From positions 7,192 through 71,191 of the forward strand of contig JBKGVB010000033.1 in assembly GCA_046462475.1 (NCBI GenBank): DNA of 64,000 nt, given 5' to 3'. How positions within the stretch are numbered: the stretch's first letter is position 1; the number at the start of each line of letters is the position of its first letter. The DNA comes from Candidatus Saccharimonadales bacterium. GTDB lineage: Bacteria > Patescibacteriota > Saccharimonadia > Saccharimonadales > Saccharimonadaceae. Both the position numbers and the translations under genes were made by a program. A model generated the notes under the pieces. It saw only the letters and a program-made list of their open reading frames with translations. It searched no databases and was not told where the DNA came from. Positions 7,190 to 40,282 of this stretch are shown here, one piece after another.

Positions 7190-7354
7190 ATGGCAAGCAA
7201 GGAAGAAGTTCGTGCTTGGGCTCGCAAGTCTGCAAACGGAGAGAAGCTCGCAGATCACGAGCGAGCTGCAGTCAACCGGACCACTTCACAGGCCGGCAGC
7301 GAGGGCAAGAAGGTCACTCGTCTCCTGGGCGGAAGCAAGGAGAAGGACGACTGA
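7190..7354 (+). CDS. Possible 54-aa hydrophilic protein (MASKEEVRAWARKSANGEKLADHERAAV...)
   Basis: ATG preceded by GAGAGGGGGTGGA 7 nt upstream. GC-rich codons. Too short to appear in the ORF track. It may instead be part of the structured RNA. Confidence 0.35.
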   Translation: MASKEEVRAWARKSANGEKLADHERAAVNRTTSQAGSEGKKVTRLLGGSKEKDD

Positions 7355-15805: not shown

Positions 15806-17497
15806 TCAGTAAGATAATGCCGTTTGAGTACCACCGACAACCGGCGTACGAGAACCACTGTTCGTGCCATTGCCATAGTTCCCATCCGCGTTCCATCCCC
15901 AGCAATACATCTGGTTGCTAGAACTTAGAGCACATGTCGTCGATCTACCAGCCGAAGCGGATGCCAAGGTCTTGCCCGATAAGGCTCCAGAAGTATCGAC
16001 AGCAACAGGGACGAGCGAGGAGGTTATAAATGAAGAAGTACCGAGTTGGCCTGCACCATTACCCCCCCAGCATGCCATTTGATTGTCAGCTGTAATCACA
16101 CAACCATGCTGTCCGCTATGCGTAATCCCCGTTATTGTCTTGCCCGACAGCACCCCTGAAACAGACACAGCGATCGGCACGCTAGAAGAACTCGCCGTAC
16201 CGCTACCCAGCTCACCGTTCGAGCCAAAGCCCCAGCAGTACGCTTTATTATCGGAGGCGATGACACAAGTGTCACTAAACCCGGTTACGAGCTGCTTGAT
16301 TGTTTTCCCTGACAGAGCTCCCGTAGTAGTAACGGCAACTGGCGCATTAGAAGTCGTCGAGGCAACACCGTTCCCAAGTGAGCCACTACTGGTTGCTCCC
16401 CAGCAGTAGGCATTGTTGTCCGAGGCGACAACGCAACCGCCGAACTCACCTAGGCTAACTTGCTTGACGGTCTTGCCCGCTAACGCACCGCCAGTATAGA
16501 CAGGTGAGGGCACGTAGCTGCTCGTCCCGCTGTTATCACCAATCCTACCCCCATTACCGAATCCCCAGCAGTAAGCATTGTTGTCAGAGGCGACAACACA
16601 TGCACCATAAATACCGACAGCAATTTGTTTCACTGTCTTGTTTCTCAGTGCTCCGGAGTTCGTGACCGCCACTGGTACATTCGACGCAGTATTCTGACCA
16701 TCACCGAGAGAACCATAGTAGTTGTAGCCCCAACAATATGCATTATCATCGGAGGCAATCACACAGGTAATATTTCCTCCAGCGCTAATTGCCTTGATCG
16801 TTAAGTTTTTTAACACCCCTCCGGTATATACAGGCGTAGGCACATAAGCATCGGAATTAGATCCATTACCAAGCTGCCCATAATCATTCTTCCCCCAGCA
16901 ATATGCTTGAGCAGTTACTGATATACCGCATGTGTAGCTTGCATTTATCCCAAGTGTTACCTGCGTCCATCCAAATTTCACAACCCCAGTAATATTTTGA
17001 TTATAGCTCTGCCACACTGCGCCATTGCTCGACCTCAGCAGTTGCACAGTTCCGTTAACCGGAATCGTATACGATCCATCCGAATTAAATGTCGCCGTTC
17101 CCACCGAGAACGTAGTCCGTGCATTTCCATTACTGAGTACGTAGCAGCTCGGAGTATCCGTCGAGCAAGCCACACCCCCTCCACAGTCCGTATTAGGACG
17201 AAGAGGGGAAGTATTAGACCATGTCGGTGTGCTCGTACCGTTTGCGATACACGCCTTCGCCATCGTAAGCCCTGCTTCCGCAGCTTCCTTGGCAAGCTTG
17301 TTATAGTACTGGGCATTGATCGAAGCTGTAATAGAACCGACTGAAGCAAGTGTAACCGTTAAGAGAAGCATCATGACCACTGAGGCGATCAGCACCGTTG
17401 GCAGAGCAAATGCCGGGGAATAATGCTTGCGGTTTAACAACATATACCTTATAGTAGCCGCTAACTCCATTGACTGCAATATGCGTTTACTGTACAA
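15806..17497 (-). CDS. RCC1-repeat seven-bladed beta-propeller protein with a pilin/PilX-like hydrophobic N-terminal anchor
   Basis: Seven repeats of (A/M)(Y/A)CWG.N..G.LG. N-terminus ...SPAFALPTVLIASVVMMLLL. Start uncertain: TTG at 17497, ATG at 17470 or ATG at 17443. Confidence 0.75.
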   Translation of the reverse strand: MYSKRILQSMELAATIRYMLLNRKHYSPAFALPTVLIASVVMMLLLTVTLASVGSITASINAQYYNKLAKEAAEAGLTMAKACIANGTSTPTWSNTSPLRPNTDCGGGVACSTDTPSCYVLSNGNARTTFSVGTATFNSDGSYTIPVNGTVQLLRSSNGAVWQSYNQNITGVVKFGWTQVTLGINASYTCGISVTAQAYCWGKNDYGQLGNGSNSDAYVPTPVYTGGVLKNLTIKAISAGGNITCVIASDDNAYCWGYNYYGSLGDGQNTASNVPVAVTNSGALRNKTVKQIAVGIYGACVVASDNNAYCWGFGNGGRIGDNSGTSSYVPSPVYTGGALAGKTVKQVSLGEFGGCVVASDNNAYCWGATSSGSLGNGVASTTSNAPVAVTTTGALSGKTIKQLVTGFSDTCVIASDNKAYCWGFGSNGELGSGTASSSSVPIAVSVSGVLSGKTITGITHSGQHGCVITADNQMACWGGNGAGQLGTSSFITSSLVPVAVDTSGALSGKTLASASAGRSTTCALSSSNQMYCWGWNADGNYGNGTNSGSRTPVVGGTQTALSY

Positions 17498-30224: not shown

Positions 30225-31006
30225 GACCCGACTACTGGCAACAACAAACCCCAGGCAAGCCACTGTTTCCCGGTATAGGCTGGAACAAACCAGAACGACG
30301 CGACCAAGCCGGAAGACTTGGTATTATCGGAGGCAATAAACTCGGTTTCGTCGCTGTTGCCGAAGGCTATCAGGCGGCGCTTGAGACTGGGGCAGGGCAC
30401 GTTCGCGTCCTACTGCCAGATGTATTGAAGAAGACCATTCCCGCCTCCATTACCGACGCATTATTTGCGCCTACAACACCAAGCGGCAGTTTGTCGCGAG
30501 ACGCCGTAGCAGAACTTGCAGCGCTTGAAGCCTGGGCAGATGGGATATTGCTCATTGGCGACACAGGACGCAATAGCGAAACGGCGATTCTCTACGAAGA
30601 ATTTATTTCTCACTACGAAGGCCCTCTTACGATCACTCGCGATGCTATAGATCTCGTCAAAAATAGCCCACGCTTACTCGCCGAGCGACCAAATACACTG
30701 ATCGTCGCTAGTTTTGCGCAGGTGCAGAAGCTATTTCAAGGAGTCTACTACCCAAAGATGCTTGCCTTTAGTATGCAGTTGCTTCAGCTAGTCGAGACAC
30801 TTCATAAATTCACCATCACATATCCGTGCACCATCTTAACACTCCACAAAGATACACTCATAATCGCATCCGCAGGGCGTGTAGTGACACAAGCATGGGA
30901 TCAGCCTATGGCAATCTGGCGGGGAAGCGTAGCTACTCGTGCGGCAAGCTATCTGCTATGGAATCCTGCAACACCTCTCGAAGCTGTCGCTGCATCTATT
31001 GAATAA
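30221..31006 (+). CDS. YjeF-C / NAD(P)HX dehydratase-like carbohydrate-kinase-fold protein
   Basis: LGIIGGNKLGFVAVAEGYQAALETGAGHVRVLLP resembles the GG....GA...A..AAL..GAG motif. ATGA overlap with the upstream gene. Confidence 0.5.
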   Translation: MRPDYWQQQTPGKPLFPGIGWNKPERRDQAGRLGIIGGNKLGFVAVAEGYQAALETGAGHVRVLLPDVLKKTIPASITDALFAPTTPSGSLSRDAVAELAALEAWADGILLIGDTGRNSETAILYEEFISHYEGPLTITRDAIDLVKNSPRLLAERPNTLIVASFAQVQKLFQGVYYPKMLAFSMQLLQLVETLHKFTITYPCTILTLHKDTLIIASAGRVVTQAWDQPMAIWRGSVATRAASYLLWNPATPLEAVAASIE

Positions 31007-31034
31007 TCACTATATACATTATATAATAAAGCCA

Positions 31035-31877
31035 ATGTCAGCTATAGAACAGTTACCAGTCGAGCCAACTCGTTATGAGCGGACCTCAGCATTTCAGAGT
31101 TTCGCCTCTGCTACCATGGCGCTTGATCAGCTTGGTCATCTGAAATCTTTTACGACAAACGACTACCGTGCGCTTGAAGCAGCCAAACGATCGTTGTCAG
31201 ACGCAACAGAAATCTTTGAAGCAAGCGACAACCCAGTAAATGCGCTTCGCGCTCGCACTTCCTTGGCTTTTGCCGATCTTACCGCTCGTCGCAATGAACT
31301 CATCTCCCGACGAAACGAATGGCGGCTTCCCGAAGGATTTCATGAGCTATTCATGAAAAGAGCTTTTATAAATGCCGGACAGGTGGCAATAGATGGACTC
31401 GACCTATATGAACGCGAACGTCTCAACCCAGAGCGACGCCGACATATAGCAGGCTTTTTGCACGAGCTCACAACACTTCTCGTGACACTTCGCGATGATC
31501 CTCTTCGTTTTGGTGTTCCTGCGAGCATCTATGACGATCAATTTAGCGACGGATTCCACTTCGATATTATGCTTTATGACCTCACGAAACCTCATGATAT
31601 GCGTCGCGCAGTTGATGTAAAGGCCTTTCAGAGGCGCGGCGAGGCCCCTAAGCCTAACTCTCGATTTGCGCGCGTGCTCTACGCATCAGACACTCTTCGC
31701 AACAATAAGCATACGACTTTCTGGAAGACAAGCGAGCCAGCCGCTAATCGACCGCACTTCCCAACACTCCGAGCACTAGTCGGCGAGCCAATGATCGAGT
31801 CGCCTATAGAAGTAAGAGAGAAGCTCTCGGCAATCCAGCAAGACTTATTTGAGCAAGCTTTTAGTGAGAAGTGGTAG
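31035..31877 (+). CDS. Hypothetical protein (280 aa) with a possible PD-(D/E)XK-like motif
   Basis: The motif is HFDIML...18 aa...VDVKA. Start trimmed to the ATG at 31035. Confidence 0.55.
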   Translation: MSAIEQLPVEPTRYERTSAFQSFASATMALDQLGHLKSFTTNDYRALEAAKRSLSDATEIFEASDNPVNALRARTSLAFADLTARRNELISRRNEWRLPEGFHELFMKRAFINAGQVAIDGLDLYERERLNPERRRHIAGFLHELTTLLVTLRDDPLRFGVPASIYDDQFSDGFHFDIMLYDLTKPHDMRRAVDVKAFQRRGEAPKPNSRFARVLYASDTLRNNKHTTFWKTSEPAANRPHFPTLRALVGEPMIESPIEVREKLSAIQQDLFEQAFSEKW

Positions 31878-32032
31878 GATTTATGTCATATATGTAGTCT
31901 TTTTTTCATCGGCGCGTGGAGGAAGTGGCATCTTTCGACCCAAAGAGATACATGGTATCACCGTACTCCGTTCACCTTGCTTCACTGAGAAAAGCTTGTT
32001 TCCGCTGCCGAACCGTATGAGTCGTCAGTTTA

Positions 32033-32737
32033 CTACAAATATGATATTCCTATAGATACACACCCATTGCTGTACGTCGATAGGGTATAATCGCCGCCGC
32101 CTTGGAACCACCCAGAAGTGAAAAGCTCTGGTGCATCTAACTCTTCACATGGTCCGCACGTAGCTGGCGGCTGCGGGTAGAGACTATCATCGGTGACAGT
32201 GACCGTCAGATAATTAGTGTCCGGATCATACACAGCACGAAACCCTTGCTCCGGTTTATCGAGTACATACTGGATACCTGGCTGACTCGAATCAAGATCC
32301 GCTGCTTGCCTAACGTCTTGCTCTGTATCATACCCAAATAGCTTCGCCGACCATTCATTCACCGTGTTACTATCAGCATTACACGCTACTAGACGACCTT
32401 GAGCGTCTGCGCGCACCTGCGTATCGCCACACATTTCACTGTGCGGATCACAGTCCGCAGGCCCAGGCTTCGTCGACACGGGGTCAGATGGTGCAGGAGA
32501 GGGGTTTAGCGAGGGAGATGTAGGTCTCGCTTGGGTATTACAATCCACACCATCTGCAGCAAAGACTGGAGTACTTATCGACACGACACCTCCAGCAGCG
32601 AGTATACACAACAACAGCCCAAGACTCTTCCGAAGGGGCGGGCAGAAAAACATTGCGAGCCCACACAGCAGCACTACGATAGCGACGAGCACTACCATCC
32701 ACATATTCATTCCTGTCTGAGCTAAACACACTTCCAT
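32033..32737 (-). CDS. Secreted or membrane-anchored Cys-containing protein
   Basis: Two N-terminal hydrophobic segments ending in VFA|ADG, then a Pro/Ser-rich linker. Start uncertain (several Met within the first 14 codons). Confidence 0.55.
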   Translation of the reverse strand: MEVCLAQTGMNMWMVVLVAIVVLLCGLAMFFCPPLRKSLGLLLCILAAGGVVSISTPVFAADGVDCNTQARPTSPSLNPSPAPSDPVSTKPGPADCDPHSEMCGDTQVRADAQGRLVACNADSNTVNEWSAKLFGYDTEQDVRQAADLDSSQPGIQYVLDKPEQGFRAVYDPDTNYLTVTVTDDSLYPQPPATCGPCEELDAPELFTSGWFQGGGDYTLSTYSNGCVSIGISYL

Positions 32738-32833
32738 GGGTTGATCCTGTTTTAATTACTATTATTGTATTTATGCATAGATCGCATTAATTTCATTGTA
32801 GCATGAGAATCCGCGTTTGCAACATACTTTTTA

Positions 32834-33427
32834 CTACCTATATGATTGAGGTATAGCAACAATCACGTCACGGCCGTCATTCGCGCCACCAAGCGTACAT
32901 GAATAGAGAGTGAGACGAGGAGCAGATGTTCGAGCTTCTATAGAGATAGCGTTTGGCTGTACTGCAAATTTCTGTGACACTTTATAGACATATCTCACAT
33001 GCTGATAGTCGACGATGATTTTTTTACCCACCGTTAACTCACCGATACGATAAAAAGGGGAACGCTTGTTTGTCCCACCTGGTGTAAAGTCCATATAGAA
33101 ACGATGTGCGGCTAGCACAAAATTGCCCCCGTCTCGCGGATTGCCATTCTCGGAATGCCGCCACCAGGCGCCTTTTTCGAGTGCTGCTTCACCTCTGCCA
33201 AATGGTACCTTTACGTCGATAGACGGGATGTAGAGCATCGCTGTGGCAGGTCGCCGAGTGGATTTTTTCAGGACTTGGACCGTTTGGTTGTTCGTAGGAC
33301 TCGAAGTAATACGTTTCATTTCCGGCGAGCTCGCAAGCAGTAGCACATATATGCCGAGCACGACGAAACCACAGGCAACTATCTTGAGTAGCCAGCGTCT
33401 TGTGTATGCTCTATGGAGTCGTAGCAT
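32834..33427 (-). CDS. Sortase-family transpeptidase
   Basis: N-terminal TM helix, LAAHR His motif, TLYSCT Cys motif, and an Arg 9 residues downstream. Confidence 0.75.
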   Translation of the reverse strand: MLRLHRAYTRRWLLKIVACGFVVLGIYVLLLASSPEMKRITSSPTNNQTVQVLKKSTRRPATAMLYIPSIDVKVPFGRGEAALEKGAWWRHSENGNPRDGGNFVLAAHRFYMDFTPGGTNKRSPFYRIGELTVGKKIIVDYQHVRYVYKVSQKFAVQPNAISIEARTSAPRLTLYSCTLGGANDGRDVIVAIPQSYR

Positions 33428-33487
33428 GGGTATATTTTAGCTTGTTTTATGCATAAAAGGTAATAATGCACTGAATATATTTTTCTA

Positions 33488-33496
33488 TGGTATACT
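33488..33496 (+). promoter_or_regulatory. Extended -10 box TGGTATACT, 6 nt before the pilin ATG (implies a leaderless mRNA)
   Basis: The same 9-mer occurs at 34178 before the TetR gene. Confidence 0.45.
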
Positions 33497-33502
33497 TCCC
33501 AT

Positions 33503-34087
33503 ATGTCACGAAGCACAAGCGGCTTTACACTCGTAGAACTTCTCATAGTTTGTGCTGTTATCGTCTTACTGGCAATCATCACGGGCATGACCTATAGGGG
33601 ATATGTAAAACAGACACGAGATACCGAGCGTCAATCAGATATTCAAGCCATACGATCGGCCCTCGAAAAATATTACGATAAAAATGGCGAATATCCTGAT
33701 ATGTCCAATCCTGCTATGCAGAACTGCGACCCGATGAGCCAAAGCGCACGCGACTCGTTACTCACACTTCTTCCTGGATTAGCCGCAGCAACAATGATTG
33801 CGCCAAATGCCAAAGCAGGAACAGTAACCTCTGTCTGCACCAGCAACGCCATACCGTCGAACACGACAACATATAGATACATGACCGTTGTCTACACTTC
33901 CACATACTGCAAATTCAAAATTGCAAGAGAAACGATAAGAAATGACATCGGTAGCGGATACTACATCTTGATGTACCGGGATGAATCCACCGGACTCGTG
34001 CATTTTTACCGAAGTAAACGAGGTGGACTTACGGTCGACCCTTCCAGCACACCTACGCCTCCTCAAACATGCAATTTCTCAAGCTAG
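33503..34087 (+). CDS. Type IV pilin-like protein (194 aa)
   Basis: MSRSTSG|FTLVELLIV prepilin signal. The EKYYDKNGEYP motif is shared with the 716-aa pilin. Confidence 0.85.
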   Translation: MSRSTSGFTLVELLIVCAVIVLLAIITGMTYRGYVKQTRDTERQSDIQAIRSALEKYYDKNGEYPDMSNPAMQNCDPMSQSARDSLLTLLPGLAAATMIAPNAKAGTVTSVCTSNAIPSNTTTYRYMTVVYTSTYCKFKIARETIRNDIGSGYYILMYRDESTGLVHFYRSKRGGLTVDPSSTPTPPQTCNFSS

Positions 34088-34177
34088 TCCGCAAAAAGTC
34101 ACTAAGTCCCTAATCCGTCAACCTTACATTTTTACTAAAGGCATTATATTAATGCATCTTGTAAATTAATAGTGCAG

Positions 34178-34186
34178 TGGTATACT
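34178..34186 (+). promoter_or_regulatory. Extended -10 box TGGTATACT
   Basis: Lies 10 nt before the ATG at 34197. Confidence 0.4.
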
Positions 34187-34196
34187 TTAACTAATT

Positions 34197-34793
34197 ATGA
34201 CTAAACCGACTGGACTAAGGGAACGAAAAAAACAGCAAACAAAAGATGCTATCTTAAAGAGCGCCTATTATCTTTTCAAGAAAAAGGGGTATGAAGACAC
34301 TTCGATCGAAGAGATCACCGCACGGGCCGAATTTGCGCCACGAACATTCTTCCTCCATTTTTCATCGAAAGAGGACCTAGTATTTCCATATCTCGACGAG
34401 ATCATGCAGTCGCTAAAAGCGATGTTTGAGCAGCGTGGTGACACACCAACGCTTATCGCTTTCAAGCAGTGGCAGCTCGATATTGCCACGGAGATCAAAT
34501 CGCTCAAAGACGAGGACCACGATGCCATCCGCCGCGAGCTACTCGCATCAAGTCGCCACTTGCAGGCACGACTCAGCAACATGCTCGACGACATCGAAGC
34601 GATTCTCGCCGTCGAACTAGCAAAAGACCGCCACCTCACAAAACCAGACCTCTCAGCCCGTGTGGCCGCCGCAGCCGCTCTCGCAATCTTTACTGCACTA
34701 TACGAGTACGGCATCGAACGTCTTTCTCGCAAAGAGATCACCGAAGCTGTTGATTTAGCTGCCACTTGCCTCAAAGACACACTCGAAGTGTAG
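34197..34793 (+). CDS. TetR-family transcriptional regulator
   Basis: N-terminal HTH region RERKKQQTKDAILKSAYYLFKKKGYEDTSIEEITARAEFAPRTFFLHF. Confidence 0.85.
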   Translation: MTKPTGLRERKKQQTKDAILKSAYYLFKKKGYEDTSIEEITARAEFAPRTFFLHFSSKEDLVFPYLDEIMQSLKAMFEQRGDTPTLIAFKQWQLDIATEIKSLKDEDHDAIRRELLASSRHLQARLSNMLDDIEAILAVELAKDRHLTKPDLSARVAAAAALAIFTALYEYGIERLSRKEITEAVDLAATCLKDTLEV

Positions 34794-35094
34794 AGGCCAG
34801 CGTATAGCAAACCAGTTTGTAGGACTCCACTTATTCTGATCCCTGCGCGCGGTAAGGACCAACTTTTTCGCAAAGAGATCATATAATCAATCAACGCCTC
34901 TATCGATTTCCTTAGAAAAACCATCAAACTTTCCGAGCTCTAGTAGGAGACATTTTGGCTCAAAAATCGCTTTACAATCTCCCACATAGTGCCATATAAT
35001 GCAACTACTGTATGAATAACATTTGTGCAACAATCTGTCACATAAGCCCCTCTCTCGCACTACGAAGGGCAGTATCTAAGCCTTAAATGCTGCT

Positions 35095-35688
35095 ATGACC
35101 GACACAACCGGACTACGACATCGCAAGAAACAGCAGACGAGAAGAGCCCTCCTCCAGAGCGCATATGACTTATTCGAAGAAAAAGGATTTCGTGAGACCT
35201 CCATCGAAGATATTACGACACGAGCAAACTTCGCGCCGCGAACCTTTTTCCTGCATTTTACCTCCAAAGAAGAATTACTTTTCATAGACTCAGACTGGAT
35301 GGCAGCGCAACTTGTAGAAATATTCAAGCATCGAGGCAGCATGACCGCCCTAGCAGCCTTTAAGAAGTGGCAAGACGATATCATCATACCCACACTCTCG
35401 AAAAACCGCGAGTATGAAGATATCCGACGACGCCTTATAATGAGCTGTCCTCAGGGCCAGGCAAGAGTCGCTAGCTACGTCAATGACGCAAAGACTCGAC
35501 TTGCAGACGAACTGGCAAAGGACCGCGACCTCACGACGCCTGACTTATCAACGCTTGTCACTGCCGCTGCCGCGGTAGCAATCTTTGTTGTCTTTTACGA
35601 ACAGGGAATCCAGCATATCTCTCGCGCAGAAATCGCCCGAGCAATCCACGATGCCACCGAACAGCTCACAGGCTCTCTTGAGACTTAG
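35095..35688 (+). CDS. TetR-family transcriptional regulator (paralogue of 34197-34793)
   Basis: RHRKKQQTRRALLQSAYDLFEEKGFRETSIEDITTRANFAPRTFFLHF. Collinear similarity to the neighbouring TetR along the full length. Confidence 0.85.
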   Translation: MTDTTGLRHRKKQQTRRALLQSAYDLFEEKGFRETSIEDITTRANFAPRTFFLHFTSKEELLFIDSDWMAAQLVEIFKHRGSMTALAAFKKWQDDIIIPTLSKNREYEDIRRRLIMSCPQGQARVASYVNDAKTRLADELAKDRDLTTPDLSTLVTAAAAVAIFVVFYEQGIQHISRAEIARAIHDATEQLTGSLET

Positions 35689-35754
35689 CCGGGAATGCAG
35701 CAGTCATCCCTCCGATAGAGCAAATAAAATGGGATGCGAAGCTGTATGCTGTTT

Positions 35755-36294
35755 TCAGGAAGCAGTAGCGTCGCTATCTCTAGTAATAACCAATGGACTG
35801 ACTTGTTCGACATAATAGCGCACATTCCAATTCATAGTGTCTACTGGCATATTTATACCTTTTGTCACCGTACATATCGTCGCTCCCAGGGTCGGATTCC
35901 GCATTTCATGCTTCGTCCCACTCATATCAATCCATACTAGAAGATTGTATTTCGGATTATACAAGACGAGACAATATGCAGGACGCGGACTAGCATCACT
36001 CTGCCGCGGAGTACTTGTATAGGCATACTTATTTCCGCCACTAAGCGCAAAGCCTTTGCCGTCATTTACAGACGAGGGGTCCTCTGGATACATCGACGAG
36101 TCGAAGTCTTTTGTCAGTTCAAGCTGTTGAGATCCGTTGTTTAAGTCACTATCCAAGGTAGTCTTAATAGCTCGAGATTGTATGCCGCTATACGATACAG
36201 TAGCTATCGACGCAAGGATCGCTATCACTACGATAACAACCACGAGCTCCACGATCGTGAAGCCAGCTGTCTGATTCTTTCGGTATATGCCCAT
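35755..36294 (-). CDS. Type IV pilin-like protein (179 aa)
   Basis: MGIYRKNQTAG|FTIVELVVV prepilin signal. Confidence 0.85.
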   Translation of the reverse strand: MGIYRKNQTAGFTIVELVVVIVVIAILASIATVSYSGIQSRAIKTTLDSDLNNGSQQLELTKDFDSSMYPEDPSSVNDGKGFALSGGNKYAYTSTPRQSDASPRPAYCLVLYNPKYNLLVWIDMSGTKHEMRNPTLGATICTVTKGINMPVDTMNWNVRYYVEQVSPLVITRDSDATAS

Positions 36295-36370
36295 GTGTTA
36301 TTATTTTACTGCATTGATACTAAAGATACATCAACTGCACTATATAATATCACAGGCCCCACTGCCAAAG

Positions 36371-36395
36371 AAAAAAGAGTGCGACCTGCACTCTC
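36371..36395 (-). terminator. Rho-independent terminator after tRNA-Leu
   Basis: Minus strand reads GAGAGTGC-aggtc-GCACTCT followed by TTTTTT. Confidence 0.65.
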
Positions 36396-36406
36396 AACTT
36401 CCTACT

Positions 36407-36494
36407 TGGTACCGCGGGCCGGACTTGAACCGGCACGTCCGTATTGGACATCAGATTTTGAGTCTAACGTGTCTACCAATTCCACCACCGCGGC
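36407..36494 (-). tRNA. tRNA-Leu (anticodon CAA), class II with a long variable arm and encoded CCA
   Basis: Minus strand: GCCGCGG-TG-...GGAATTGGTAG..., anticodon loop CTCAAAA, T arm CCGGTTCAAGTCCGG, 3' end CCGCGGTACCA. Confidence 0.9.
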
Positions 36495-36552
36495 TTACTC
36501 AAAATAACCTATCGTATTGTACAATAGATAGTAATAGGAATCTACAGCAAGC

Positions 36553-37755
36553 ATGCAACCAAAAGACACTAACGCACCGGTTCCAGACGACAATTCACGT
36601 GGGCAAGTTATACCTCCAGCCCGCGATTATTCAAAATCTCACGATGCAGTAGCAAATATGACACGTGAACAGATCAATCAAGTATACGCCCAGCAGACGA
36701 CGAACGAGCAGCAGGCGAACGAGACAGCCGGGACTACTCAAGGAAATCCTTACCAGCGCACACTTACAGACAATCCTCACGAACGCACTACCTCCGACTG
36801 GCAGCGCTATCATAGCGCATGGCAAGATTACTACCAAAAATATTATGAGCGCTACTACGTCAATGCAGCACATACAACCCATCAAGCCTACCAAGCTCAT
36901 GCCGCCAAGCTAGAGGAAGAGGCTAAAAGGACCAAAGAAGAGCTCGCCTCGCATGATGATGAGCCAATGACTCAAGATGAGGCACTGTACGACCTACGCT
37001 CGCAGCTACTCACGAAGGTGCAAGATGGGGCAAAGAAAGTACGCCACTCGAGACACTTTATTCCACTTATCTCAGCGGCATGCGTATTGCTTGTATTTGT
37101 CTTCTTGCAGTACAACGCGATCATCTTTGCGACGGTCGCAGCATATACAAGTCCCGGCAATATCGATCCAGCAAATCTCATCGTTAATCCAGATCTGTCT
37201 GTAAAGGTAGGGAAGGAGCCTCGCATTATCATTCCAAAGCTCAATATCGATATTGGAGTAAGCTACGACGCAAAACCAGACTATAACTCACAGATGGCTG
37301 CAATGGCCAGTGGTACGGCATATTTTGGCATTGCCGGAGCAAATAGCCTGCCAGGGCAGCGTGGCAACGTACCGATTGCCGGGCACTCATCAAGTGAGTT
37401 CTATGATACCGGTAAGGCAAAATTCATCTTTGCCAGGCTCGACCAATTGACCAAGGGTGATATCTTTTATCTCAATTACAACGGCACCCGCTACACCTAT
37501 AGCGTGACCACCAAGAAGGTAGTCGCACCAAATGACGTAGCGTCCTTGCAGATTGGCGCAGACAAACCATACGCCACGCTCATTACCTGTACGCCTGTCG
37601 GTACAGCACAGAGCCGCCTCCTTGTCTTCGCCGAGCAAATCAGCCCCGATCCTTCGACTGCAAAGCCAGCACCAAATGCAGATACTGGCACACAAGATGT
37701 TCAGATGGCCGGCACTTCACCTACATTGCTCGAGCGAGCATTTGGTGCACGATAA
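36553..37755 (+). CDS. Sortase-domain protein with a long Gln/Tyr/Thr-rich cytoplasmic N-terminal extension
   Basis: TM helix near aa 175. IAGHSSS His motif, TLITCTP Cys motif and a downstream Arg (SRLLVFA). Confidence 0.8.
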   Translation: MQPKDTNAPVPDDNSRGQVIPPARDYSKSHDAVANMTREQINQVYAQQTTNEQQANETAGTTQGNPYQRTLTDNPHERTTSDWQRYHSAWQDYYQKYYERYYVNAAHTTHQAYQAHAAKLEEEAKRTKEELASHDDEPMTQDEALYDLRSQLLTKVQDGAKKVRHSRHFIPLISAACVLLVFVFLQYNAIIFATVAAYTSPGNIDPANLIVNPDLSVKVGKEPRIIIPKLNIDIGVSYDAKPDYNSQMAAMASGTAYFGIAGANSLPGQRGNVPIAGHSSSEFYDTGKAKFIFARLDQLTKGDIFYLNYNGTRYTYSVTTKKVVAPNDVASLQIGADKPYATLITCTPVGTAQSRLLVFAEQISPDPSTAKPAPNADTGTQDVQMAGTSPTLLERAFGAR

Positions 37756-37756
37756 A

Positions 37757-39208
37757 TTAATTTAAGATCATTTTCGTCTGTTGCAGACTAAAGCCCGTGG
37801 CGCTTTTACCAATTGTATAGAGATACTTTCCGTTCGAGCTGTAATCGGCCGCAAATCCAGGCGCTACTGCTACAATGTCGACTTGATTCGTACCATCAAA
37901 CTCATACTGCCGCATATATCCATTTGCATCTGACCAAAAATGAAATTGGTCGAGCCATTTAAGCTGCGAAGAAAGATGCTCTACTCCCACGATCGGAGTA
38001 TCTGACTGCTTCATCAATTCGATATCGAATGTTGTGAGGCCGTCTTTCTGCTGCAGTATCACGAAGCGGCCGCTTGCCTTGAAACCCGAGAACAGTACGC
38101 CCGATGGGGTAGTGATAGTCTTGAGCGGCGTTGCCTCAACTGCTGGAGACTGATCATCACTGGATGGCAACGACTCTATCTGATCGATATACGTTGTCGT
38201 ACCGACCGATGTCGCGATATAGCGCGTCGAAAAATACTCGCCCGATGAGATCTGTACAGTCTTGTCTGTTTCATACGTCCTGAGGGTTCGCGCTCGTGTG
38301 CTTCCAAGCGTCAAATAACCCGATGAAACCTGACCGGCGTGTGGCGTTGTGACATAGAACAATGTATCGTTATCGCTCATCATCGTTGCAACATTCTCAA
38401 GTGGCAACTTTGTAACATTCTGTGACGAAATCACTTCTTGAGCAACTGTGCCATCGCTATACCGAACTAGTAGGGCGCCAGAGCTGCGCGGATCGCTTAC
38501 CACTTCGAGCGGCAGATGATTTTTTGAAGCACCGATCATAATGCTTTGGTCGGGTGAATCTGTATCCACAACAATCCAATCACTCACACCCGCAACCGTT
38601 CGCTCAAGCAAGACATAGCGATTACTTAGCCAATCGCCGAGCTTATACGCTGGGGTGGTCTTTGTCTTTACTTGAGGAAGAAGTGAGCTTGGTACCGTAA
38701 CATCCTCTGTCTTTATGGTGTCGCCGCTAATATTGACGAGAGTAATCGTAGGCGTAGTCTTTGCCTGAAGTAGCGCCATCATATTGCCGCGCGCACTCAT
38801 AGAATCAAGTGTCTTCATATCCAGTACGGAGGTTGTTTTTGGATTATTAGGCACAAATCGCGCCGAATTAAGCCACAAGACTGCACCAGCCTTTACGACT
38901 ACGTTCTTCTTCCAGTCCTGGTAGCCAGCTTTTTGCATCGTCACCAGATAATCGCCAGGTGTTAAGGTAATCTTTGCTCGCGTTTTTTTCGCCAGTATAA
39001 TGTCACCGACCTTTATTGAGGCGCCCGATGGCTGAGAAATAAACTGTACCAGTCCACCTTGCTGGATCGTTCCATTATACCGATTGAATCGGTATCCGAG
39101 CATCAGAAAGATCAATACCGTAGCAATACCTATCACTGCTACAACCATCAATGTGTAGGATACTATTCGACGAATAAGAGCACTTCGAGTTAAGCCTGTT
39201 CCTTGCAT
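37757..39208 (-). CDS. PEGA-domain membrane-anchored protein with a large extracytoplasmic domain
   Basis: N-terminal TM helix, then SQPSGASIKVGD...TLTPGDYLVTMQKAGYQDW (PEGA-like). Confidence 0.7.
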   Translation of the reverse strand: MQGTGLTRSALIRRIVSYTLMVVAVIGIATVLIFLMLGYRFNRYNGTIQQGGLVQFISQPSGASIKVGDIILAKKTRAKITLTPGDYLVTMQKAGYQDWKKNVVVKAGAVLWLNSARFVPNNPKTTSVLDMKTLDSMSARGNMMALLQAKTTPTITLVNISGDTIKTEDVTVPSSLLPQVKTKTTPAYKLGDWLSNRYVLLERTVAGVSDWIVVDTDSPDQSIMIGASKNHLPLEVVSDPRSSGALLVRYSDGTVAQEVISSQNVTKLPLENVATMMSDNDTLFYVTTPHAGQVSSGYLTLGSTRARTLRTYETDKTVQISSGEYFSTRYIATSVGTTTYIDQIESLPSSDDQSPAVEATPLKTITTPSGVLFSGFKASGRFVILQQKDGLTTFDIELMKQSDTPIVGVEHLSSQLKWLDQFHFWSDANGYMRQYEFDGTNQVDIVAVAPGFAADYSSNGKYLYTIGKSATGFSLQQTKMILN

Positions 39209-39298: not shown

Positions 39299-40282
39299 AT
39301 GTCAACACAAAACACAGTCACAATCAACGGAGTTCATTACGATCCAGTAACAGGCATGCGACTTGATGATGCACCTGCTGCTATTAAGCAGCACCCGACA
39401 CATCAAGCGGCAAAACCAGCCAAGACGCTTCATAAGAATACCGATCGCACACGAACTTTGAGTCGTGCGCATGTAAAGGCGCCAGCCAATCATATCGATG
39501 CAATTCGCCGCGGTGCGCCAAAGGCGCCAATCACAAAGAGCCCTATGATTCGTAAGTTTGCTGATGTTGCGCCTGCCTCAAAAGCACAAGCGCTCCACAA
39601 AGCACCACGCGCTGCCGACATCGCTCCAGTTCGTCATCCCATCCAGGCAAAGCCTCACACTGCTCCAGCACCACGAAGGGCAATGGAACCTGTCGCAAAG
39701 GCAGCAGTTGCCGCACCGGCAGCTCCTGCGCCACGCCCTGCGAGAGAAATCAAAAAGCAGGCAATCGAGAAAGCACTTCACAATGCCAAGCCTGCAAAAG
39801 TAAAAAAGCAATCTTTCCTCAAGCGCCATCCGCGTACCATGAGCATCTCCACAGCAGCACTCGCACTCGTCTTGTTAGCTGGTTACCTGACGTATATCAA
39901 TCTTCCAAGCATTTCCGTGCGCGTCGCGGCAGCTCAAGCAGGTATTGCAGCTACATATCCTTCATATCAGCCATCGGGCTACAGCCTTCATGGACCGGTC
40001 GCATACGCCAACGGTCAAGTCAGCATGAAGTTTGCCGCAAACGTCGGTACACAAAACTACAAGGTCACACAGGTAAAAAGCAGCTGGGACTCATCCGCAC
40101 TACTCGACAACTATGTCGACCAAGCATCGAGTGGCGACTACACAACATTTAACAATAGCGGCCTGACTATCTACGTCTACGGCACGAATGCAGCCTGGGT
40201 AAGTGGCGGTATCTTGCATACCATCCAAGGCAATGCGGCACTTACGACTGAGCAAATCCAGCGTATCGCTACAAGCATGTAA
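39299..40282 (+). CDS. Hypothetical protein: Ala/Pro/Lys-rich N-terminal region, one TM helix and a C-terminal globular domain
   Basis: ORF with AGGGATATAAGG upstream of the ATG. The TM helix is ISTAALALVLLAGYLTYI. Confidence 0.6.
   Translation: MSTQNTVTINGVHYDPVTGMRLDDAPAAIKQHPTHQAAKPAKTLHKNTDRTRTLSRAHVKAPANHIDAIRRGAPKAPITKSPMIRKFADVAPASKAQALHKAPRAADIAPVRHPIQAKPHTAPAPRRAMEPVAKAAVAAPAAPAPRPAREIKKQAIEKALHNAKPAKVKKQSFLKRHPRTMSISTAALALVLLAGYLTYINLPSISVRVAAAQAGIAATYPSYQPSGYSLHGPVAYANGQVSMKFAANVGTQNYKVTQVKSSWDSSALLDNYVDQASSGDYTTFNNSGLTIYVYGTNAAWVSGGILHTIQGNAALTTEQIQRIATSM

Follow-up and report, generated by a model that had tools for sequence, protein, structure and literature searches.

A candidate cell-wall sorting signal at the N-terminus of a surface protein, with a sortase encoded beside it, is described here from a Candidatus Saccharimonadales bacterium (NCBI GenBank assembly GCA_046462475.1, contig JBKGVB010000033.1). 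The DNA analysed, hereafter the window, is a stretch of 64,000 nt (positions 7,192 to 71,191 of the contig); between its positions 32,033 and 39,208 lie the genes for a secreted cysteine-containing protein (the Cys protein), a short sortase, two type IV pilin-like proteins, two TetR-family regulators, a tRNA-Leu, a long sortase and a PEGA-domain protein. The best explanation, to which we give a probability slightly above even (about 0.55), is that this locus is composite, and that the short sortase and the Cys protein within its variable part would form a pair with an N-terminal sorting signal and disulfide-tethered wall anchoring. That the short sortase takes the Cys protein as its substrate is proposed with moderate confidence, and the disulfide tether with less confidence than the pairing. 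The broader proposition, that a subset of Saccharibacteria anchor adhesins by the N-terminus, with the sortase attaching a peptide of ~8 residues and the adhesin held to it by a Cys–Cys disulfide, is offered tentatively, as one that we would sooner doubt than assert.

The Cys protein and its N-terminal LAxTG element

A six-frame scan of the window for an LPXTG-like pentapeptide followed by an uncharged hydrophobic stretch and K/R gave a single match, at the N-terminus of the Cys protein, whose gene sits 96 nt downstream of the short sortase: LAQTG, 26 uncharged residues and RK. No open reading frame (ORF) of the window carries a C-terminal LPXTG or LAXTG sorting signal, a statement of the initial annotation that was borne out while the N-terminal element had been overlooked, and no sorting signal was found in the pilins, the PEGA protein or a 327-aa protein encoded next to it. 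The layout of the Cys protein is M-E-V-C-LAQTG-[26 uncharged residues]-R-K-[SLGLLLCILAAGGVVSISTPVFA]↓A-D-G-V-D-C..., with the candidate sorting signal at residues 5–37 of 234 and the signal peptide after it. By its elements (acidic tail MEVC, LAQTG, hydrophobic helix, R-K), the segment of the first ~37 residues has the make-up of a complete cell-wall sorting signal, and its RK loop doubles as the n-region of an ordinary signal peptide formed by the second helix and the VFA↓A site. The first transmembrane (TM) segment covers residues 10–35, the loop R36-K37, and the second TM segment residues 38–60, ending in the AXA site VFA↓A; Cys66 lies six residues into the mature protein, whose domain has seven Cys. 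Helices at residues 12–31 and 33–53 were the only confident parts of an AlphaFold2 model. A Shine-Dalgarno-like AGGA stands 9–12 nt upstream of M1, and such sequences precede M1 in four loci, with none ahead of the internal Met29. A soil strain at ~93% identity keeps the start codon, C-LAQTG and helix 1 but differs in the loop and helix 2.

A word-indexed homologue search with the Cys protein recovered the protein itself and nothing else. A phmmer search of 1.84 billion representative proteins returned 10 matches, all with the same N-terminal layout, one of which (P0247) is a degenerate 93-aa fragment. Besides the window protein, 12 further proteins with this layout were found, 11 of them with an intact motif, and the family as treated here comprises 13 sequences including the window protein, 12 of which are full-length. 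In the shared layout an acidic tail of 2–6 residues ending in Cys is followed by LAxTG (x = E, A, N, P, S or Q), a helix of ~22–26 residues, a K/R-rich loop, a second helix with an AXA signal-peptidase site, and a Cys 2–10 residues later. Acidic N-tails and basic loops occur in all members, and the pentapeptide, hydrophobic segment and basic residues in all full-length relatives; L5, T8 and G9 do not vary among the 13 members and C4 and A6 hardly do, against a mean column identity of 25%. Curated LPXTG-anchor models recognise the N-terminus of 5 of the 13 (E<=10), P0245 reaching 17.4 bits, above the TIGR01167 cut-off of 15.9, and P0248 15.5. The passenger domains are adhesin-like (CshA repeat, Big_9/cadherin-like, BNR), and a C-proximal motif, VD[LI]D..TPGVQ...Y[DN]P.TD.LTVT[VI]TD, is common to the family. 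Because an acidic tail, a basic loop and a secreted-type C-terminal domain occur together, the layout would imply a topology with the N-terminus out, the loop in and the C-terminus out, and this would place LAxTG where a sortase meets it in normal substrates.

The likeness to a canonical sorting signal (TIGR01167, PF00746), the kind that housekeeping sortases process, extends to L-A-x-T-G, the acidic residue that often comes next, the ~22–26-residue helix and the cytoplasmic K/R; in both cases the signal adjoins a sortase gene, and curated models detect it in relatives. Unlike the canonical signal, that of the present family stands at the extreme N-terminus, with only 2–6 residues including the conserved Cys before the motif, and signal peptide and passenger follow it, so that the cargo would attach indirectly by a disulfide and not by its own backbone. 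The proteins of NF058583 ("LAXTG motif-containing small protein") are similar in having LAXTG near the N-terminus and a tiny passenger, with an N-tail that has no classical signal peptide to take it across the membrane, and 4 of the 13 members match this model weakly (<=17.5 bits against a cut-off of 65) over profile positions 17–49. However, those are stand-alone proteins of ~54 aa, whereas members of the present family go on to a signal peptide and then a large adhesin-like ectodomain.

The short sortase and the proposed anchoring mechanism

The catalytic residues of the short sortase, H108, C177 and R186, are invariant in an alignment of 16 homologues, and the enzyme belongs to a Saccharibacteria-wide clade that includes TM7x_00340, with relatives at ~47–56% identity. 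Related loci from genomes and metagenomes were compared (144 examined for TetR and 134 short-sortase loci for pilins, with 1.33 Mb of flanks); the contig scans for short-sortase loci yielded almost only oral Nanosynbacter-type loci, and the environmental lineages in which the Cys-protein family occurs are thinly sampled. In about 130 loci the gene is set in the order pnp–srtS–rpsO–truB. Proteins with C-terminal signals adjoin several clade members: in three loci (L112, L114, L115) LADTG, a TM segment and KKRS at the stop codon end a few nt upstream of the sortase, and others carry LAHTG and LAETG (L139), VPNTG (L011) or APDTG (L144). Canonical substrates encoded elsewhere, which the initial annotation had named as speaking against its reading, were thus found, all of them beside homologous sortases in relatives. 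Two loci instead have proteins with the N-terminal layout next to a short-sortase homologue, a BNR-repeat protein of 488 residues beginning MDGCT-LAETG... (L012) and a CshA-repeat protein beginning MENC-LAATG... (L142); together with the window, three of the four known contexts of the family adjoin this sortase type. Proteins with LADTG, LAHTG, LAETG, LAATG and LAQTG all adjoin clade members.

SrtE1 and SrtE2 of Streptomyces coelicolor are class E sortases specific for LAXTG (PMC5148588), and a conserved Tyr in the beta3/beta4 loop of SrtE1 (Tyr229) reads Ala at P3 (PMC5148588). SrtE1 is the only PDB sequence match for the short sortase at E<=0.001, and the neighboring substrates with Ala at P3 (LADTG, LAHTG, LAETG, LAQTG) are a further likeness to the actinobacterial class E enzymes. 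The short sortase is best called a distinct sortase clade of the Candidate Phyla Radiation (CPR) that would use LAxTG-type signals. In one related locus, a 31-aa single-TM ORF (L141:5061-5156) lies 8 nt upstream of the short-sortase homologue and is reminiscent of SafA, a small membrane protein associated with the housekeeping sortases of Actinobacteria (PMC9282373).

The distribution of cysteines bears on how the passenger could be held. All 12 full-length members have both the Cys before LAxTG and the Cys 2–10 residues past the AXA site, and the number of Cys in the mature part is odd in every one of them (1, 3, 3, 7, 5, 3, 3, 3, 3, 3 and 3, and 7 in the window protein by manual count); among the 488 residues of the L012 protein only two are Cys, which precede LAETG and follow the AXA site, respectively. 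In contrast, the Cys counts of five C-terminal-signal substrates from these loci are even, with the residues visibly paired (2, 6, 2, 10 and 18), and none has a Cys before the motif. Because of these odd counts in 12 of 12 members and even counts in the five controls, a disulfide between the N-tail Cys and the first Cys of the mature part is the simplest reading. CPR genomes commonly encode MdbA-like oxidoreductases and VKOR (PMC6744442).

In the mechanism proposed here, the two helices of the Cys protein would insert as a hairpin, leaving both the short N-tail and the large C-terminal domain outside the membrane, and the Cys just ahead of LAQTG would pair by disulfide with the Cys just past the signal-peptidase site. 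Signal peptidase would cleave after VFA, and the sortase would cleave LAQT↓G and move the octapeptide MEVCLAQT onto peptidoglycan. The adhesin-like domain would then hang from the wall by its N-terminal end via the disulfide, with the conserved C-proximal module free. Alternatively, the sortase might process the N-terminal signal for another purpose while the ectodomain is simply secreted: the Cys peptide might be released or wall-linked, with C-L-A-x-T forming a five-residue ring like the thiolactone of an autoinducing peptide (AIP), or the N-terminal Gly unmasked on the hairpin might act as an acceptor for other sortase substrates. Such a role would suit a peptide of only 8–11 residues N-terminal to the cut, the existence of the NF058583 small proteins with their weak matches to four members, and the canonical signal-peptidase sites of all members, which would free the ectodomain. 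Nevertheless, we consider it clearly improbable, since the parity of the ectodomain Cys points to pairing between them and the N-tail Cys and away from another use of the latter, and since the fusion of a signalling peptide to diverse adhesin domains would be left without explanation.

Several observations weigh against the anchoring of the Cys protein by an N-terminal signal and a disulfide as part of a composite locus. The short sortase differs from the actinobacterial class E enzymes in falling below the cut-off of the class E model NF033747 (43.8 bits against 160) and in the residue at the Tyr229 position: in a phmmer alignment the Tyr of the SrtE1 (5cuw) GHY motif, taken as Tyr229 by counting from the active-site residues and not from published numbering, aligns with H91 of GAWWRH, which varies among H, K, Q, N, M and A in the family. 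Its AlphaFold2 model (predicted local distance difference test, pLDDT, 81) has a generic sortase fold, and class assignment by fold search was rejected, since the E-values for class A, C and E sortases are much alike. The model of the Cys protein, from an 11-sequence alignment, reached a pLDDT of 51 and was used neither for fold search nor for Cys–Cys distances; the family is small, its 13 sequences being phylogenetically non-independent; and translocation of the N-tail without a preceding signal is an assumption of the proposed mechanism. Furthermore, 26 of the 134 short-sortase loci carry a ~160-aa pilin less than 2 kb (~0.9 kb) from the sortase, in the order srtS–rpsO–pilin–truB, so pilin–sortase proximity is not unique to the window and some linkage between the two may exist.

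Two further points on the same side concern the signal itself. The N-terminus of the Cys protein scores 9.8 bits on the LPXTG_anchor model TIGR01167, under the cut-off, and the closest homologue, P0242 (47% identity), is not beside a sortase in L144. There is also no precedent in the literature searched: neither "N-terminal LPXTG" nor "N-terminal LAXTG" was found, LAXTG or LAETG combined with Patescibacteria or Saccharibacteria was absent from the top-ranked matches, a search on LAXTG, disulfide, N-terminus and sortase together gave only general reviews and protein-engineering papers, and N-terminal placement of an LAxTG sorting signal was described nowhere. These three points would be consistent with the C-LAxTG hairpin being an unusual double-helix membrane anchor or pro-region that the sortase leaves uncut, the adjacency of the two genes being historical. 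We regard this as unlikely: L, T and G stay fixed amid diverging residues, the same pentapeptide serves in C-terminal signals beside homologous sortases, the geometry of motif, helix and basic charge and the predicted topology fit a genuine sorting signal, and the family adjoins a sortase in most of its known contexts.

The conserved sortase–PEGA block and the tRNA-linked slot

Gene order and coordinates were rechecked by ORF listing and ARAGORN, and domains by Pfam and NCBIfam profiles (Table 1). All nine features of the initial annotation were reproduced at their exact coordinates, with the same order, strands and domain calls, and its descriptions of the G↓FT(L/I)VEL signals in both pilins, the His, Cys and Arg motifs of both sortases, the Q/Y-rich N-terminal extension of the long sortase and the duplication of TetR were all correct. 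Pfam scores exceeded the cut-offs for the sortases (62.5 bits for the short and 76.0 for the long, against 26.6), the N_methyl signals of the pilins (23.0 and 27.9 against 21.2, with TIGR02532 likewise matching both), the TetR_N domains (52.3 and 54.7 against 24, with TetR_C_14 also found in both regulators) and the PEGA domain (27.6). The two sortases share 29% identity. The Cys protein, the 327-aa protein and a 312-aa protein matched no family in Pfam or NCBIfam, and Rfam returned the tRNA alone over 30–41 kb.

Table 1. Features of the locus and its surroundings (window coordinates)
Feature	Position	Strand	Basis
Cys protein, adhesin-like, 234 aa, predicted short-sortase substrate	32033-32737	-	ORF and layout
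Codons 1-9 of Cys protein, M-E-V-C-L-A-Q-T-G: acidic N-tail with Cys4, then LAxTG	32711-32737	-	
Cys-protein helical hairpin: TM1, R36-K37 loop, TM2/signal-peptide h- and c-regions, VFA↓A	32558-32710	-	
Short sortase, 197 aa, N-terminal membrane anchor and catalytic domain	32834-33427	-	Pfam Sortase
Type IV pilin-like protein 1, 194 aa, G↓FTLVEL	33503-34087	+	N_methyl
TetR-family regulator 1, MftR-like C-terminal domain	34197-34793	+	TetR_N
Promoter-like site for TetR 2, 11/12 positions matching	34971-35000		
TetR-family regulator 2	35095-35688	+	TetR_N
Type IV pilin-like protein 2, 179 aa, G↓FTIVEL	35755-36294	-	N_methyl
Promoter-like site of pilin 2	36368-36339		
Terminator-like hairpin near tRNA-Leu	36395-36375		
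tRNA-Leu(CAA)	36407-36494	-	ARAGORN
Long sortase, 400 aa	36553-37755	+	Pfam Sortase
PEGA-domain membrane protein, 483 aa	37757-39208	-	Pfam PEGA
327-aa single-pass membrane protein without known family	39299-40282	+	Conserved block
Lineage-specific insert, ~4.5 kb: Cys protein, short sortase, pilin 1, two TetRs, pilin 2	31878-36406		

The surroundings of the long sortase were compared in five related Saccharimonadales lineages at 51-84% identity (L001, L002/L003, L004/L005, L006/L007 and L008/L009). All five share the order cmk–smpB–exo-endo-phosphatase–gmk–...–261-aa gene–variable gene of ~180-360 aa–tRNA-Leu(CAA)(-)–long sortase, continued to the right by PEGA(-)–~314-aa gene–gltX–DUF3048–histidine kinase–response regulator; the tRNA-Leu(CAA) is seen upstream of the long sortase in L001, L002 and L004 as well as in the window, and the 327-aa gene of the window belongs to this conserved block, with glutamyl-tRNA synthetase (GluRS) following it. 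In none of the five lineages does a pilin, TetR or short-sortase gene lie between the variable gene and the tRNA. The PEGA protein is convergent with the long sortase in every relative examined, and no sorting-signal protein was found within ~8 kb of the long sortase in six relatives or the window. Judged by this conservation, the long sortase is part of a conserved core and not of an insert, in what looks like a housekeeping-like sortase–PEGA block.

The long sortase itself has thousands of relatives, of which the best 120 are from Saccharimonadales at 49-84% identity, most of them aligned over the whole query; full-length homologues at about 50-86% identity are spread across Saccharimonadales. 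Its triad H278/C346/R355 is invariant in an alignment of 13 homologues, and a cytoplasmic extension, a TM segment, the catalytic domain and a C-terminal tail follow one another along the protein. The Q/Y-rich N-terminal extension is conserved, with W..YHS.WQ.YYQ.YY..YY invariant, and a cytoplasmic N-terminal extension is shared with the class E enzyme SrtE1, in which it is functionally important (PMC5148588). On the class C (pilus) model NF033745 the protein scores 76 bits, below the cut-off of 160. A conserved tail, SPTLLERxFG (invariant G.SPT..ER.FG), extends past the catalytic domain and might be a lid or pseudo-substrate.

Similarity between the DNA of the window and of L006, the 84%-identical relative, ends near 30936 and restarts exactly at 36407, the 3' end of the tRNA. 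Because of this break, ~31878-36406 is read as an insert in a variable slot; it starts exactly at the tRNA-Leu 3' end and is not present even in the 84%-identical relative. A chimeric assembly was ruled out, since both insert junctions were independently assembled in other soil metagenome runs, and the locus is therefore not an assembly artefact. A single 7-kb contig from the ~93%-identical strain, recovered in another study, also holds the 312-aa gene, the Cys protein, the short sortase, pilin 1 and the TetR region. By these comparisons the locus is a composite, in which a conserved block is joined to a variable tRNA-linked slot holding a ~4.5-kb insert of surface-related genes.

The insert resembles genomic islands at tRNA 3' ends in that it directly adjoins tRNA-Leu(CAA) at the 3' end, close relatives lack it, and one relative has a duplicated tRNA 3' half at the same site. 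Unlike such islands, the window has no integrase, flanking direct repeat or compositional shift: no integrase domain was found among the insert proteins in Pfam and NCBIfam, no direct repeat, whether of the tRNA 3' end or of another att-like kind, was found flanking the insert, and G+C is 0.47 in the insert and 0.49 in the flanks. The duplicated half, a partial copy of tRNA-Leu(CAA) at L002:7644-7701 (likewise in L003), lies ~45 nt past the intact tRNA; it is 93% identical to the tRNA of the window, to which the intact tRNA of L002 is only ~73% identical, and it looks like the scar of an element integrated at tRNA-Leu(CAA). Because this copy is closer to the window tRNA than to that of L002, it suggests that the 3' site of tRNA-Leu(CAA) may be an integration hotspot. 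In another relative, P0247 (93 aa) preserves the N-terminus of the Cys protein in truncated, degenerate form (MNTY-LTATG ... ADGVDCN), and it may share one contig with P0011, a long-sortase homologue at 57% identity, so that this relative may hold the same insert in a state of decay.

The gene at the left edge of the slot (30939-31877, 312 aa) and its equivalents in L001, L002, L004, L006 and L008 are hypervariable, ranging from 180 to 359 aa, and barely alignable between lineages whose neighboring genes share 65-85% identity. The ORF overlaps the upstream gene by 68 nt, and its true start is probably a Met at ~31035. Membership of the 312-aa gene in the insert was rejected on its weak local similarity to the slot proteins of L001 and L008 (E ~1e-4 and 2e-3), and it is more likely a fast-evolving occupant of the conserved slot. 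A contig of a related soil strain (run X5) is structurally different at 34793-35180, in the TetR1–TetR2 spacer, where the alignment skips ahead and then returns, and divergence in parts of pilin 1 prevents their alignment with that strain; the regulators and pilin of the insert appear to evolve faster than its sortase.

Pilin-like genes, regulators and implications

The window pilins share with the studied type IV pili of Saccharibacteria (TM7x; PMC12206443) the class III signal G↓FT(L/I)VE and a hydrophobic alpha-1 helix; a separate donor-strand pilus has recently been described (10.64898/2026.03.03.709456). They resemble one another in the alpha-1 helix only, match other pilins over this generic helix only (residues 1–65 in pilin 1), and contain no LAxTG or LPxTG motif; unlike those pilins, they have globular domains that are unrelated to each other and to the rpsO-linked pilins. 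The latter were the only pilin-like ORFs in the 1.33 Mb of sortase flanks (L011, L087, L099, L111, L114, L115, L117-L138) and form one orthologous family, ending in ...PAYNYAQVF, that matches the window pilins over residues 1-60 only. They are read as one inherited arrangement in some lineages, which would not be evidence for the gene combination of the window. No pilus assembly gene (prepilin peptidase or assembly ATPase) was identified among the 20 window proteins scanned. The two TetR regulators are 52% identical, and homologues of them were found in none of the 144 related loci.

The initial annotation had proposed a co-regulated attachment locus or, as an alternative, sortases acting on non-canonical substrates. 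A single co-regulated island, in which sortases and type IV pilins cooperate and pilins or other non-canonical proteins are the substrates, would be consistent with two pilin-like genes, two sortases and two regulators within 7 kb, with the recurrence of a TTTATGCAT(A) box in the sortase/pilin and sortase/Cys-protein spacers, and with the rpsO-linked pilin near the short sortase in about a fifth of its loci. However, the pilins lack sorting motifs, the long sortase is never beside pilins in the five related lineages, the TetR homologues are missing from all related loci, the rpsO-linked pilin is no orthologue of the window pilins, the box occurs at chance frequency window-wide, and a better substrate candidate, the Cys protein, is directly beside the short sortase. 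We therefore judge such an island highly improbable, and as a conserved unit the co-regulated locus found no support in the five lineages or the TetR counts. The juxtaposition with pilins proved to be largely not conserved, with the rpsO-linked pilin as the part that recurs, while the idea of non-canonical substrates stood for the short sortase, in the N-terminal C-LAQTG of the Cys protein, and fell for the pilins. No result here points to a mechanistic connection between the pilins and the sortases. Both pilin-like genes and both TetR genes are cargo that happens to share the variable slot; they do not encode sortase substrates and are probably variable surface and regulatory genes.

The palindromic TTTATGCAT(A) box occurs at 32770-32781 in the sortase/Cys-protein spacer, at 33446-33457 in the divergent sortase/pilin-1 spacer and at ~34150-34157; the sortase/pilin-1 spacer holds it as a perfect 14-bp palindrome, TTTTATGCATAAAA, and the copy upstream of TetR1 (~34150-34157) is weaker. 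Two good copies fall within promoters of the insert, but the box is not claimed as a TetR operator, with 3 occurrences in the window against 2.9 expected in shuffles. A third pilin-like gene (92-2242, +) encodes 716 aa with G↓FTLVEIL, and with three in 64 kb pilin-like genes are scattered through the genome. A 563-aa RCC1-repeat protein with an N-terminal hydrophobic segment is encoded at 15806-17497 (-).

The sortase–pilin "island" should not be taken as a functional operon, being a conserved sortase–PEGA block with a tRNA-linked variable slot. CPR genomes are enriched in sortases, and more than half of them encode these enzymes (PMC6744442). The substrates of CPR sortases are nevertheless essentially uncharacterised, and the display of adhesins by epibionts is central to host recognition. 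The actinobacterial hosts of these epibionts themselves use LAXTG sortases. If the anchoring proposed here is correct, it would be the first N-terminal sortase sorting signal and would involve redox-releasable anchoring to the wall; the C-terminal rule for sorting signals would have an exception, and substrate predictors that consider only the C-terminus would miss these proteins. It would also provide a compact natural design for sortase-based protein engineering, and would point to a novel orientation of surface proteins, held by a disulfide tether that could be released while the C-terminal end stays free.

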